Positions 9,228 to 62,211 of a stretch of 64,000 nucleotides of DNA are shown piece by piece (the stretch's first letter is position 1; each line of letters begins with the position of its first letter). The translations under genes and the position numbers were made by a program. The stretch lies in sequence record NC_041937.1; one strand, written 5' to 3'. The stretch comes from Escherichia phage V18. The notes below the pieces were generated by a model, which saw only the letters and a program-made list of their open reading frames with translations, was not told the DNA's origin and searched no databases.

Positions 9228-9494
9228 ATGTTATTTATGGCAACAGAGGTAGTAATCAAAGCTGAACGCCCAGTTAAAAAAGCTATCAACACGTTCCCTG
9301 TGGGAACCATTGTGAGCATGATCACAGAGTCAGGCCGTGTATCTACGCTGCTGATTGTGAAATCTGCATGTTCTTCTTGTGTGTGGGCTTACGATCTGGA
9401 CGAGAAAGAACTAAAAGATTTTGTTGGGGAGCTGAAAGCAACCGAGCTCGATGCTCGTATCGAAGTATTTGGTGAAACTATGGAGGAAGAGTAA
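9228..9494 (+). CDS. small hypothetical protein (member of tandem trio)
   Basis: 88-aa ORF. Confidence 0.4.
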   Translation: MLFMATEVVIKAERPVKKAINTFPVGTIVSMITESGRVSTLLIVKSACSSCVWAYDLDEKELKDFVGELKATELDARIEVFGETMEEE

Positions 9495-50387: not shown

Positions 50388-51212
50388 TTATTCACCACCT
50401 TTCAGAGTTGCTTTAACAACCAGCTCTGGACGGGTGTTAACTGCCAGCATGGAAGTTTCAGATTCAATCTTCTCTTCACGCAGGTATGCAGAGTGTTTAT
50501 ACCACATGTACAGTTCCTGTGCTGGAGTGTTTGCTTCGTTAACATCGTCTGCCGGAGCAAAGTGCAGCTGGAACATCTGATCAATACCCATCGGCAGAAT
50601 GCGAGCTTCTTTCTTAGGAATATTGCCAGAGATATCTTCGATAAAGGTGATACCTTTATGCTCAAACACACGGTATACGCTGTCTTGACCGCCAGCACCC
50701 AGACGGCGACGCAGAGGTTCCTGAGCAGAGCCGTAATAGGTGTATGCCAGTTCTACCAGAGGGTCATACTGACAGGTTGTGTCACCAGGTGCATAGGATT
50801 TACCCAGAATAGCCTGGAACAGCGCTTTCTCACGCAGTGCTTCATGAGAAACACGGATACGGCGAACAACGCGGGTTACTACGTCCTGAACAGTTTTCGG
50901 AGCATCAGGTGTGAAGTAACGACGGAAGTTCTGAACATCTGCTGCGGTGATGCCTTTGTCCAGAGGGAAGAACGGGATGTTCAGGTTTTTAACCTGAGCA
51001 CGTTCACTACCAACGTAGTTACGCTCACCACCACGACGGCGTGCCGGAATGTCGGTTACAACTTCATCAACACGCTCAATCTGAGCAATTGTTGAGGTGC
51101 CGAGACGGGTTTCGAACAGATCCATACCAGTAATCAGGCGGAATTGACGCGGAACAAGGTCCAGAGTAGCACCTAAATCAACAATGCCAAATTCATCTTT
51201 ACGAGTAATCAT
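50388..51212 (-). CDS. putative major capsid protein
   Basis: 274-aa ORF, codon usage of a highly expressed gene, strong terminator downstream, position after portal/scaffold; short for an HK97-fold capsid protein. Confidence 0.45.
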   Translation of the reverse strand: MITRKDEFGIVDLGATLDLVPRQFRLITGMDLFETRLGTSTIAQIERVDEVVTDIPARRRGGERNYVGSERAQVKNLNIPFFPLDKGITAADVQNFRRYFTPDAPKTVQDVVTRVVRRIRVSHEALREKALFQAILGKSYAPGDTTCQYDPLVELAYTYYGSAQEPLRRRLGAGGQDSVYRVFEHKGITFIEDISGNIPKKEARILPMGIDQMFQLHFAPADDVNEANTPAQELYMWYKHSAYLREEKIESETSMLAVNTRPELVVKATLKGGE

Positions 51213-51296
51213 TTATTTCTCCAAAGTAAAATTGTAGCCAGCATCGCTAGAATCAACTTTGCCGAGCACGATATCAGAATATTGAGCGGTAATCAT
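51213..51296 (-). CDS. 27-aa upstream ORF duplicating the capsid gene initiation region
   Basis: GAAATAAATGATTAC occurs twice (51205..51219 and 51289..51303); uORF MITAQYSDIVLGKVDSSDAGYNFTLEK ends TAA immediately before the capsid ATG. Confidence 0.3.
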   Translation of the reverse strand: MITAQYSDIVLGKVDSSDAGYNFTLEK

Positions 51297-51380
51297 TTAT
51301 TTCCCCCGTTAAACTCTTATGCTTCAGCAGATCCAGATACTCTTTAGTTTTGGTTGCGTCCCTTGATCAGGTTCCCTTCT

Positions 51381-51728
51381 TTATCGAAGAGATCCCAGCC
51401 TACCAATACAAGACTCTGCGTCAGCTTGCGCCCATTCCCAATCAGGATGCTCTTTAGCCCAAGCCTCCTCTTCAATCTCAAAACCAAGCATGTGTGCAAG
51501 TGCTTTAGCATCATCATACCACATATCGAAGAAACGACGCAAGTATTCTTCAAAACTAAGCTCCACAGTAACTTGGCGAAGTGCCTTAACAATATCGTCT
51601 GTTAACTGCTCAGGCTTAAGATCACTCTTCATCAAAAGAGATACAGGTCTGTTGTTAGCGCTATAGCCTTGCGCCTTATGGCACAGGGCAATCCCCTTCT
51701 CTTTAATAGTAATCGTTTTTTCAGACAT
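51381..51728 (-). CDS. head protein (decoration or scaffold-associated)
   Basis: 115-aa ORF between scaffold/protease-like and capsid genes. Confidence 0.4.
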   Translation of the reverse strand: MSEKTITIKEKGIALCHKAQGYSANNRPVSLLMKSDLKPEQLTDDIVKALRQVTVELSFEEYLRRFFDMWYDDAKALAHMLGFEIEEEAWAKEHPDWEWAQADAESCIGRLGSLR

Positions 51729-53873: not shown

Positions 53874-55429
53874 TTAGATAAAACGCTTGAACATAGAAGG
53901 TGATGAGATTGATGGAATCACACAAGGAAGTGCTACCTCCTCTTTCTCCAGGAAATTAATCGCAGAAGCTACACAGTCGGCCCAGTCGTCTTTTCTGTTA
54001 AATGTTGATCTTTCCCCGTTGAATTTTTCAAGTTCAGTCAGAAATGCTTCCAGAGTATCAGGATGGAAACTGGATTTTACAATCCTCACCATTCCTTGTT
54101 GGGCAAGATTGGCAAAAGGTGAGAACCTTGTCAGTTTAGATTTGTTGGAAGGCATTGGGTCTTCTTCAACCCTAAACCCTTCGGCAAGCAAGGATCTGGA
54201 GGAGGTTAAGAACTCACTCTTACCTGCCTGACCGGGGTCCACAGAGAATACGATTATACAATCATCACCATCAAACTGCGCCTGTTTCCTGATGATCACA
54301 TCTCGTTCACCAGCCTTTTTACAGAACTTGCCTTCCAGACCTGTGGAATACCTCCCGTCATCCACGTTCTCAGGACAATAATCCCCGGACAGGTAATAAA
54401 AGCCGTCGCTATCTTTACTTACCTTGACACTGGCGGTAAAGTCAGGAAATTTATTACCGGAAGTTCTCTCGGTTCCTGCTTTATCCCATGCCCTGCAAGA
54501 CACTGATCCAAGGGGTACTCTATCGGCATCACGAAGGAAAGATCTTTGAAAATAGTTTGCACCCTCAGGCTTTGCAAACCAGTTACCATGGAGAAGCTGA
54601 GCTTTTTCAAGCTCGGGCAGACCTTCAAGGAAAGCAAGGTATTCTGGGTTGTCTCTTAAGCAGACAGGATTATCGAAGATTGTTGCGCCTATAAACGAGA
54701 ATGACAACGGTCTCGGCTTGATCTCTACACCCAGTCCGTTAACCGTGGTGTATTTCTCTATCAACTCTTCTTTAGAGTCTCCCCAGATAAATTCACCGTC
54801 GCGTCGGATAAAATATCTTTTCTTACCGCATTTCTCCGGATCTGGATACCCTTCATCGTCCAACCACCACCTAACCAGTTTGGCAAGCATGTGTTCTGAA
54901 TCGGGGTTACAGCTGATAACCATTCTTGATGGATACTTTGACTGAGATCTCAGACGAGACATCAGATAGTCTATCTGCTCCCATTCGAACTGCGTGCCTC
55001 ATCGAAGCAAACCAAGCAAACCATGGTATACTCAAGCCCTTGATGGTTAAGCTTATCTTGTACATACTCCATGTGGCAGTATTTTACAACAGCTCCCTTT
55101 TTGCTTCTATCCCACTTGCCAGTGTTCGGATCAAACCGTGGAAAAATGAACTTATGATCCTTCTCTCTGAACTTTGGCTTAATGTTTTCAGGCAGATCAC
55201 TATAAATAGCTACTGCTTTAGGCCATAGTCCACCCTCACCTTCCAACTGTGGGGTTGTTCTTCGGAACATAACCACAGAGCTGTGGGGGTCATCAATAAT
55301 TTTAAGTGGCATCAATTGCAAGAGGAACGACTTGCCAGACCCTGCGGCACCGCCGATTACCAAAATATCTGCATCGTTTTCGAGGATCATCTTCTGCTTT
55401 TCAGAACACGGTCCGTAAATCTTAGACAT
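53874..55429 (-). CDS. terL: terminase large subunit, split by apparent frameshift at about 54975..54998
   Basis: N-terminal ORF 54971..55429 has Walker A GGAAGSGKS and Walker B LVCFDEA; C-terminal frame is open from 54998 (QFEWEQIDYLMSRL...) and continues in ORF 53874..54962. Confidence 0.7.
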
Positions 55430-56209: not shown

Positions 56210-56485
56210 CTAATACTTATCGAGCACTCGGTGGATGATTCTAACAGTAACTGCATTTTCATTCATCAAGTATGCATCTACATCTCTGTAAATATAAAAC
56301 TTCTGCTCACTATCAACAACACAAGCTACTGCCCCTTCAGAGTTGTCTTCAAAAAAGACCACCACTGCATCGCAGCTGAGTTCATGATATGACTCTCGAA
56401 GATTTACAGCCAGAGGATTGAAATCGTCACGAAAATCTACAGTATGGGTTGGATTTACACGCTCTACAATTTTAAGTGTATACAT
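56210..56485 (-). CDS. hypothetical protein
   Basis: 91-aa ORF. Confidence 0.4.
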   Translation of the reverse strand: MYTLKIVERVNPTHTVDFRDDFNPLAVNLRESYHELSCDAVVVFFEDNSEGAVACVVDSEQKFYIYRDVDAYLMNENAVTVRIIHRVLDKY

Positions 56486-56531
56486 TTTAAAGGTTCCTTT
56501 TGTTTATATATGTTTAAAGTATAACTGAAAG

Positions 56532-56608
56532 TGGTCTCCACGGAGTGATTCGAACACTCGACCTCCTGATCCCAATGGTTTATCTCTACCAAGCTGAGCT
56601 ACGCGGAG
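56532..56608 (-). tRNA. tRNA-like gene, possible anticodon TGG (Pro), anticodon stem does not pair as read
   Basis: Good acceptor stem, TTCGAAT T-loop and encoded CCA; putative anticodon loop ATTGGGA but flanking stem unpaired. Confidence 0.45.
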
Positions 56609-56619
56609 TATTTATTATT

Positions 56620-56694
56620 TGGTGGCCCTGGGTGGAATTGAACCACCGTCTGGCGATTATGAGTCGCTTGCTTGAACCTTCCAGCTACAGGGCA
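56620..56694 (-). tRNA. tRNA-Met/Ile-like (anticodon CAT)
   Basis: T-arm GGTGG-TTCAATT-CCACC, anticodon loop CTCATAA, encoded CCA; position 1:72 mismatched. Confidence 0.55.
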
Positions 56695-56770
56695 TGGTGC
56701 TGATAGCAGGACTCGAACCTGCAACCTATTGATTACAAATCAATTGCACTACCAATTGTGCTACATCAGC
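56695..56770 (-). tRNA. tRNA-Thr (anticodon TGT)
   Basis: Clean cloverleaf: 7-bp acceptor, D-stem GCAC/GTGC, anticodon stem ATTGA/TCAAT with loop TTTGTAA, T-arm GCAGG-TTCGAGT-CCTGC, CCA encoded. Confidence 0.7.
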
Positions 56771-56775
56771 AAAAA

Positions 56776-56860
56776 GGTGCTAGGTGATGGAATCGAACCA
56801 CCTATGTATTCAACGACCAATAGATTTACAGTCTACACCGCTACCTCTACGGGATAACTC
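56776..56860 (-). tRNA. tRNA-like sequence, Tyr-like anticodon arm (GTA) with long variable region; no acceptor stem found
   Basis: Anticodon stem-loop GTAGA-CTGTAAA-TCTAT and T-arm with TTCGATT loop present; 5' and 3' ends do not pair. Confidence 0.3.
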
Positions 56861-56867
56861 CCCAATT

Positions 56868-56942
56868 TGGCACCCCGTACTGGACTCGAACCAGTGTCAA
56901 CGGCTTAGAAGGCCGCTGCTTTATCCACTAAGCTAACAGGGC
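56868..56942 (-). tRNA. tRNA-Arg (anticodon TCT)
   Basis: Acceptor GCCCTGT/ACGGGGT (with G-U pairs), anticodon stem GCGGC/GCCGT with loop CTTCTAA, T-arm ACTGG-TTCGAGT-CCAGT, CCA encoded. Confidence 0.65.
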
Positions 56943-57038
56943 ACTGGGTGGCTTTCTTTTACACCTTAGCCGCCAGAAAAGGTGGGAGACCATGTTTACA
57001 ATATTACACTGTTAAGCAAAGTTTGTCAAGAAAATATT

Positions 57039-57377
57039 TTAGCTATTGCTAACAGGTTGTATTTCTGTGGTAAATGGCATAAAAGGTGCTGGTTTTTCAG
57101 CCTCTTCTACTACCACCTCTTCCTCTTCACCAAACATCTCATCATATTCTTCCTGCATTCGGTCTGCCTTATCAAGAACATACTCTGCAATGCTTTGACG
57201 AATATTTTGTTTGGTTTTCGGGTCCAACATCAGCTCTCTTAAAACTTTGTGAGCTTCTGGAACCATCGCTATAAAAGATTCCTTCATATCAAGGATGTTC
57301 TTCTCTAGCTGAATGGCGTTGGACTCCTCTTTCAGAGGTCTGCCTCTACGGCGACGCTTTTTAGTTGTATCCGCCAT
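57039..57377 (-). CDS. AT-hook-like DNA-binding protein
   Basis: Start moved to ATG 57377 with GGAGGA RBS; N-terminus MADTTKKRRRRGRPLKE contains an RGRP AT-hook-like motif; acidic C-terminus. Confidence 0.4.
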   Translation of the reverse strand: MADTTKKRRRRGRPLKEESNAIQLEKNILDMKESFIAMVPEAHKVLRELMLDPKTKQNIRQSIAEYVLDKADRMQEEYDEMFGEEEEVVVEEAEKPAPFMPFTTEIQPVSNS

Positions 57378-61863: not shown

Positions 61864-62042
61864 AGAAGTGGAAAGTTCTTTTTAATCACTCCAGAGAAAC
61901 GTCAAATTATGGGCTCCCAGACGCTATTTGGCTAAAGAATTCCTCCGAGTTTATGGATTTTATTAACGATAATAGAAAGCTCTACAGACGCGTTTCTGAG
62001 TGGCATATGGACAACGACCTTGGAGAGGTGTTCGAAGGGTAA
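61860..62042 (+). CDS. small hypothetical protein
   Basis: 60-aa ORF. Confidence 0.35.
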   Translation: MKKWKVLFNHSRETSNYGLPDAIWLKNSSEFMDFINDNRKLYRRVSEWHMDNDLGEVFEG

Positions 62043-62211
62043 GACTGTTTTATTGCGCTTGGAAGAGCTATTTGTATTTGGTAAGCCTCCTGTAGTTGAC
62101 AACGTGAAGATTTTCGTGCATACTTCTAACCCATCAGCGGCTCGTAAATTCATGCTTGCGGCTGACTCGTTTAAAAAGTTTGGAATAGAGATTAAACAAA
62201 ACATCTACTGA
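62020..62211 (+). CDS. small hypothetical protein
   Basis: 63-aa ORF overlapping previous. Confidence 0.3.
   Translation: MERCSKGKTVLLRLEELFVFGKPPVVDNVKIFVHTSNPSAARKFMLAADSFKKFGIEIKQNIY

Follow-up and report, generated by a model that had tools for sequence, protein, structure and literature searches.

The tRNA cluster in the window and in its relatives

The stretch of the V18 sequence that was analysed (64,000 nt; hereafter the window) carries five tRNA-like elements on the minus strand of positions 56532-56942 (Table 1). Sequence comparison places the window in Vequintavirus (rV5-like E. coli myophages), with about 98% identity to many isolates, and its lineage differs by 1.4-2% from all phages in the databases. 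A segment of 701 bases that includes the cluster matched more than 100 Vequintavirus records at about 97% identity, among them Escherichia phage rV5, FV3, slur16, APECc02 and Murica; the match in each relative was split into two pieces spanning 1103 bases, i.e. about 400 (402) extra bases are present there.

The cluster of the relatives comprises seven elements, tRNA-Arg(TCT), tRNA-Tyr(GTA), tRNA-Ser(TGA), a 99-nt tRNA-like element, tRNA-Thr(TGT), a CAT-anticodon tRNA and tRNA-Pro(TGG), as compiled from annotation and from ARAGORN runs on rV5_ev147, slur16 and six metagenomic or Logan contigs. Six tRNAs were reported for rV5 (Kropinski et al. 2013; PMC3606486), and seven in the announcement of the Murica genome (PMC4591320). 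The complete cluster serves AGA, UAY, UCA, ACA, AUA/AUG and CCA codons, and supplies the conserved 99-nt tRNA-like RNA in addition. In some relatives (locus L012, positions 2500-2720; also L013, L014 and L005) a 127-nt insertion was observed between tRNA-Arg and tRNA-Tyr; these relatives also bear a divergent tRNA-Tyr allele, for which there was no ARAGORN call and a Rfam score of 39 bits in L005.

The window shares with the rV5 group the genomic position of the cluster (between small genes downstream of terminase and a 112-aa gene), its strand, the gene order, and 97-100% nucleotide identity over the retained parts. However, only tRNA-Arg, tRNA-Thr and a CAT tRNA shortened at its 5' end are left as genes. 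tRNA-Ser is absent; tRNA-Tyr has lost its 3' end and the 99-nt element its first 57 nt, so that the two latter persist as remnants; tRNA-Pro is a scarred remnant, and the CAT tRNA has lost its G1.

ARAGORN called three tRNAs in the whole window (Arg-tct, Thr-tgt and cat), and the same three genes were found with Rfam model RF00005 at its gathering cut-off (29 bits). tRNA-Arg, which is identical in rV5_ev147 and slur16, and tRNA-Thr matched model positions 1-71 above this cut-off. A sensitive scan of positions 56400-57100 added two weak matches, a Pro-like (56535-56608) and a Tyr-like element (56786-56852), neither of which was called by ARAGORN. In the Pro-like element the 18-nt anticodon arm was passed over by Infernal as a local end; the Tyr-like element scored 26.1 bits, below the cut-off, and matched model positions 10-63 only. 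Minimum free energy (MFE) folds of the Pro-like element kept the acceptor and T arms and formed no anticodon stem, and those of the Tyr-like element had no acceptor stem. The folds of the two odd elements were not more stable than those of shuffled sequence (z -0.8), whereas their intact homologues in relatives folded into cloverleaves. Low-scoring matches to Plastid-ycf2 and other Rfam families at the locus were rejected as antisense images of the tRNAs; all were under their respective cut-offs.

An initial annotation, made from the window's letters alone, had listed a cluster of five members at these positions: clean cloverleafs for tRNA-Arg and tRNA-Thr, a CAT tRNA that folds apart from a 1:72 mismatch, a first element with good acceptor and T arms and an unpaired anticodon stem, and a fourth, Tyr-like element without an acceptor stem. 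ARAGORN, Rfam and the MFE folds bear out these coordinates and descriptions element by element, and ARAGORN did not return five canonical tRNAs. The count of five needs amendment: five tRNA-like elements are present, but the ancestral cluster had seven, and the fourth element is a fusion of two of them.

Table 1. Coordinates and evidence for the elements of the tRNA cluster, the segments missing from it, and related features (window positions unless a locus is named)
Feature	Position or length	Strand	Remarks
tRNA-Arg(TCT)	56868-56942	-	intact, CCA encoded; ARAGORN; Rfam 67.8 bits
First 46 nt of tRNA-Tyr(GTA)	56818-56863	-	identity to relatives in alignment A1
Last 42 nt of 99-nt tRNA-like element	56776-56817	-	identity to relatives in alignment A1
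tRNA-Thr(TGT)	56695-56770	-	intact; ARAGORN; Rfam 76.2 bits
CAT-anticodon tRNA	56620-56694	-	G1 lacking; ARAGORN; Rfam 51.1 bits
tRNA-Pro(TGG) remnant	56532-56608	-	Rfam 32.1 bits; alignments A1 and A2; fold
8-nt scar ATAAACCA within tRNA-Pro remnant	56576-56583	-	replaces CGCCTGAT
Missing: 3' end of tRNA-Tyr	41 nt		
Missing: spacer tRNA-Tyr/tRNA-Ser	114 nt		
Missing: tRNA-Ser	91 nt		
Missing: spacer tRNA-Ser/99-nt element	98 nt		
Missing: 5' part of 99-nt element	57 nt		
99-nt tRNA-like element with long extra arm, relatives	L001 1878-1976	-	
HNH gene inside tRNA-Pro, relatives	L005 1259-1600; also L008-L010	-	
Head-gene lesions relative to rV5_ev147	50764-50767, 51227-51231, 51321-51394		

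Derivation of the altered elements

The Tyr-like element is, as judged from alignment A1 (MAFFT), a chimera, with the first 46 nt of tRNA-Tyr joined to the 3'-terminal 42 nt of the 99-nt element. Identity between the window and the relatives extends from the 5' end of tRNA-Tyr (GGGGAGT...GTAAATCTATTG) until ...TCTATTG, a part that comprises the acceptor 5' strand GGGGAGT, the D arm, the anticodon arm and the initial bases of the variable region; the intact tRNA-Tyr of the relatives has 87 nt. Past this point the window runs straight into GTCGTTGAATACATAGGTGGTTCGATTCCATCACCTAGCACC, the 3' 42 nt of the 99-nt element, and from GTCGTTGAATACATAGG onward it matches that element of the relatives exactly; this second part holds the 3' strand of the variable arm, the T arm and the acceptor 3' strand ACCTAGC, followed by ACC. 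The junction lies between 56818 and 56817, and no bases are shared across it. The DNA missing here amounts to 401 nt (41+114+91+98+57; Table 1) and includes tRNA-Ser; no copy of it was detected elsewhere in the window, i.e. a translocation was not found. GGGGAGT and ACCTAGC, being derived from different genes, were never partners, and thus they do not pair and no acceptor stem forms. This arrangement is the product of a blunt 401-bp deletion, which starts in the variable region of tRNA-Tyr, ends in the variable arm of the 99-nt element and takes out tRNA-Ser.

The fusion was not found in phage records, of which the best 60 all span the junction in two pieces, and the exact junction sequence gave 0 matches in IMG/VR, JGI metagenomes and GTDB genomes. 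tRNA-Ser is retained in every relative retrieved. Recombination between tRNA-Tyr and the 99-nt element, whose T arms are similar, was considered as the cause of the deletion and was rejected: BLAST HSPs overlap by 34 nt at the junction, reflecting the T-arm similarity, but MAFFT places the junction upstream of the T arms, in the variable regions.

Both parents of the chimera are, as far as sequence covariation indicates, structurally constrained in the relatives. In the divergent natural tRNA-Tyr allele, changes in the acceptor and anticodon stems are compensatory, and the 99-nt element, which is present at full length in 123 of 124 phage records (Vequintavirinae) and folds into a clean cloverleaf (z -3.7), differs between Vequintavirus (rV5-type) and Avunavirus (Av-05-type) by two compensatory stem changes, in the acceptor and the variable arm. 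Its anticodon loop is TTTTTAA in the rV5-type and TTTATAA in the Av-05-type, i.e. UUU versus UAU, and its 3' end is ACC-T, not CCA. The element is labelled tRNA-???(atcc) by ARAGORN, and its annotation in databases is inconsistent (Lys, OTHER, TERM, ??? or none).

The element with the unpaired anticodon stem is identified by alignment as a remnant of tRNA-Pro(TGG), in which the acceptor arm, most of the D arm, the anticodon loop, the 3' strand of the anticodon stem and the T arm are intact. The replacement covers positions 25-32 of the tRNA and eliminates the 5' strand of the anticodon stem: the relatives read GTAGAG-CGCCTGAT-TTGGGATCAGG, with a Rfam score of 64 bits for the intact gene, and the window reads GTAGAG-ATAAACCA-TTGGGATCAGG, with 32 bits. 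The scar differs from the sequence of the relatives at all eight bases and leaves the length of the tRNA unchanged. Stem positions 27-31 versus 39-43 (AAACC/TCAGG) form none of five pairs. The scar is the sole 8-nt block of dense mismatch in positions 39001-64000; other dense blocks relative to rV5_ev147 were observed at 61877-61884 (7 adjacent differences) and 62054-62058 (5).

A query of 121 nt around the scar retrieved about 14 records that match its flanks at 98-100% identity, in two pieces spanning 467 nt. These records, which include 241Ecol014PP, navn, and the 'Campylobacter phage' entries A142, A141, A140, A13b, A147, C7 and C9, along with others, carry an allele in which positions 25-31 of tRNA-Pro (CGCCTGA) give way to a 353-nt insert. 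The insert reads ATAATCAAAG-ATG...CTACCATAA-C, codes for a 113-aa HNH protein (PF01844, phrog_2255), and is identical in the four genomes examined (241Ecol014PP, A142, navn and C7). An intron-containing tRNA-Pro (group I) was considered and rejected, as 7 nt of the tRNA are overwritten rather than interrupted; a 342-nt ORF takes up the 353-nt insert, and no intron family was found by Rfam at locus L005, which has the HNH allele. The HNH protein is a putative homing endonuclease, for which the intact tRNA-Pro gene may be the target.

The replacement in the window starts at the same base after GTAGAG as in the known HNH allele. Of the scar, ATAA corresponds to the first 4 nt of the insert, and ACCA(T) to its 3' end (...CTACCATAAC); one T of the anticodon loop is lost. 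The HNH ORF itself was not found in the window (tblastn, and blastn of the insert), and the exact scar was absent from IMG/VR, JGI metagenomes and GTDB genomes. The tRNA-Pro remnant thus derives from the natural HNH allele, in which the insert had replaced the 5' strand of the anticodon stem, and nearly all of the insert was lost later, by the simplest route through deletion of 341 nt and of a further 5 nt (AACTT or TAACT). tRNA-Pro is already dead in the natural HNH allele of plaque-forming isolates; the loss of the HNH gene on top of this disruption is, in the collections compared, private to the V18 sequence. The origin of the Pro-like element from an HNH allele was not visible to the initial annotation, since its recognition required comparative data.

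The third lesion affects the CAT tRNA, which starts with GGCCCTG in the relatives and pairs with CAGGGCC (G1-C72). The relatives read ...CACCATGGCCCTG and the window ...CACCATGCCCTG, i.e. one G of a GG pair is lost at position 1; this loss gives rise to the 1:72 mismatch (U1.C72), and the acceptor stem has 6 bp in the fold instead of 7. The Rfam score is 51 bits, compared with 60 for the intact gene, and no G1-less variant was found in IMG/VR. Six base pairs in the stem may still suffice for a working CAT tRNA.

The literature and annotations list the phage CAT tRNA (positions 1721-1795 in L001) as tRNA-Met. In E. coli, it most resembles a CAT-anticodon tRNA that is annotated by PGAP as tRNA-Ile (ileX type); the best E. 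coli matches, in 5345 genomes, are annotated as tRNA-Ile, and the single copy checked with ARAGORN has the CAT anticodon. The phage and E. coli genes are 76-82% identical and have in common the stretch GCGACTCATAATCGC, the anticodon arm and the GGCCC/GGGCC acceptor. In tRNA-Ile2, which is charged with Ile, the CAU anticodon is modified to lysidine by TilS and reads AUA. On these similarities, the CAT tRNA is more likely a tRNA-Ile2 decoding AUA than a tRNA-Met decoding AUG.

Lesions across the window

Damage is not confined to the tRNA cluster. The window corresponds to 69,018 nt of rV5_ev147, and more than 12 blunt deletions or replacements of 60-1039 bp separate the two. The major capsid gene has an internal in-frame deletion of 186 bp (274-aa ORF at 50388-51212, versus 335 aa), most of the head decoration gene is removed by a 354-bp deletion, and in the adjacent head gene 74 unrelated bp stand in place of 640 bp; these three head-gene lesions (Table 1) should be lethal. 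The truncated capsid ORF had no entry in the protein collection. A 1039-bp deletion was found in a tail-fibre gene. A different kind of change was observed at 9252-9481, where 230 nt without similarity to rV5_ev147 replace 500 nt with two small genes; this looks like a natural cassette swap rather than damage.

Single-base indels relative to rV5_ev147 comprise 21 deletions and 10 insertions (e.g. at 1041, 11689, 11758, 43560, 47502, 54997 and 61598). Of the deletions, 17/21 are of G or C (p = 7e-4) and 17/21 lie in runs of at least two (p = 1e-3), and the deletion of G1 from the CAT tRNA has the same G/C-run context. When ORF integrity was scored, 18 of 77 reference genes were broken in the window, compared with 0-1 in five bona fide relatives, where the sole case was the known terminase intron. 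The broken genes include rIIA, polynucleotide kinase, tape measure, tail completion, capsid, decoration and terminase. Raw counts of coding indels that are not a multiple of 3 were rejected as a measure of damage; they are misleading, as bona fide relatives show 3-11 of them in a hypervariable segment.

The gene for the large subunit of the terminase is split into ORFs of 152 and 362 aa by two lesions at 54990-55015 (minus strand): a GGG run has lost one nucleotide, and 9 nt are duplicated in tandem (coding strand, GGTTTGCTT twice). Both lesions lie within a few bases of the site at which an intervening sequence is present in relatives (APECc02, L011-L014), in some of them with an endonuclease VII gene inside it. 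A second mobile-element scar was considered at this site and rejected; the window has the intron-less allele, with an insert-free exon junction.

The substitutions that are specific to the window give a different picture. Their distribution over third, first and second codon positions is 138:30:18, with 142 synonymous, 43 non-synonymous and one nonsense change, and the private substitutions of the relatives follow the same pattern. This pattern has the appearance of selection, and it follows that the lineage has been under normal selection and that the indels and deletions were superimposed on it very recently or are not biological.

Cause of the lesions and comparison with known systems

Comparison with relatives accounts for the derivation of each element, and establishes that the same class of lesion, i.e. 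the loss of one base from a short G/C run or a blunt deletion of anything from tens of bp to about 1000 bp, recurs in the broken genes, essential ones included. The reading that we prefer, with a probability of about 0.85, is that of a degraded Vequintavirus cluster with three derived lesions of this window-wide class, in which the two odd elements are non-functional pseudo-tRNAs. The lesions themselves most likely represent sequencing or assembly damage, or reflect a defective template: no viable phage could be encoded by the sequence as it stands, and the tRNA lesions are alike in form to the lethal ones elsewhere. The rV5-like 'Campylobacter phage' records flagged UNVERIFIED were clean and the damage signature was not found in them; thus, no known sequencing batch explains the damage. 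That the lesions are real, and that the window represents a naturally degraded, helper-dependent or dead rV5-like genome, is rather improbable.

For the odd elements, the initial annotation had offered three options, namely pseudo-tRNAs, non-canonical tRNAs, or indel damage of the kind seen in the coding genes. The first of these is upheld, as all three anomalies are derived and private with respect to more than 100 close relatives with canonical genes. Functional non-canonical tRNAs or tRNA-like RNAs (armless, with mismatched stems, or decoys) find a basis in the good T arm of both elements, the intact anticodon arm of one, and the 32 bits that the Pro remnant still scores against RF00005. 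However, every base of the two elements is explained as a deletion product of canonical genes known from these relatives, neither element occurs in any other genome searched, their fold stability is like that of shuffled sequence, the acceptor strands of the chimera come from two unrelated genes, and the compensatory changes in relatives preserve exactly the stems that are lost here; function of this kind is therefore scarcely credible. The third option fits in that the window is damaged throughout, but a small indel underlies the 1:72 mismatch alone; the Tyr-like element is the fusion product of a 401-bp deletion and the Pro-like element the scar of an HNH insertion.

A more substantial alternative is that the cluster lesions are genuine variants of a viable lineage, with tRNA loss and endonuclease decay, and that only the frameshifts and capsid deletions are artefacts. 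tRNA-Pro is destroyed by the HNH insert in about 14 plaque-forming relatives and hence is dispensable, and the cluster is naturally polymorphic, with the 127-nt insert and the divergent tRNA-Tyr allele in some relatives. For a lineage at about 2% divergence from all others, structural variants that are natural and private are to be expected, so that being private does not by itself mark a variant as an artefact. The removal of the HNH insert is also near-exact, with 341 of 353 nt gone and end points within a few nt of its boundaries, which hints at a genuine biological deletion, as this would be improbable for randomly placed damage; to arrive at the scar from the known allele nevertheless takes two deletions (341 and 5 nt). 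The microhomology measured across deletion junctions averaged 1.3 nt, not clearly different from the 0.7 nt of random placement, and so does not tell the mechanisms apart. Against natural variation, the 401-bp deletion is blunt like the capsid, decoration and tail-fibre deletions and falls in their size class, the G1 deletion has the G/C-run context of the frameshifts, the 99-nt element is complete in all but one of the records compared, and tRNA-Ser is present in all relatives retrieved. On balance we regard natural variation of the cluster as unlikely, though to be taken seriously.

It was also considered whether the 8-nt block in tRNA-Pro could be a random multi-base substitution or a sequencing glitch with no link to the HNH gene. 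The block puts 8 nt in place of 8 nt, and two further dense mismatch blocks exist in the window; however, the chance of an agreement with both ATAA and ACCA(T) (within the last 13 nt of the insert) is about 1e-4 by our own estimate, and the flanks in the 121-nt query are 100% identical to those of phages with the HNH allele, which makes a random origin very improbable.

The preferred reading, a degraded cluster with derived lesions, adds no new kind of tRNA: the cluster itself is already known, with the tRNAs of the rV5 group published, and its non-folding members in the window are deletion remnants. Like other tRNA pseudogenes and truncated remnants, these have partial cloverleaves with a good T arm, missing or mismatched stems, and scores near or below threshold; by contrast, for the V18 elements the parent genes and exact break points are known from close relatives. 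The biological weight of the finding is small, and its value lies in quality control, as about a quarter of the genes are disrupted; features of the window should not be taken as biology ahead of a read-level check. If the lesions were real, the Pro scar would mark a rarely observed late step in the cycle of invasion, decay and loss, at which a homing-endonuclease gene has disappeared almost exactly from the tRNA gene that it had destroyed, and the 401-bp deletion would have fused two phage tRNA genes in nature.

A homing endonuclease gene in a phage tRNA region has been described with SegB of T4/T6 (PMC2330249; PMC13096335). The SegB gene and the HNH gene of the rV5 group are alike in that each is a free-standing endonuclease gene in a phage tRNA cluster and polymorphic among close relatives. 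However, SegB is of the GIY-YIG type and lies between tRNA genes, whereas the rV5-group gene encodes a putative homing endonuclease of the HNH type, replaces part of a tRNA gene and destroys that tRNA; the window, which agrees with the HNH allele in the site of replacement (25-31), the first 4 nt of the insert and the flanks, no longer carries the gene. Two features of the relatives may be of specialist interest, i.e. this natural allele, with its HNH endonuclease gene written over part of tRNA-Pro, and the conserved 99-nt tRNA-like element, whose anticodon varies between genera.
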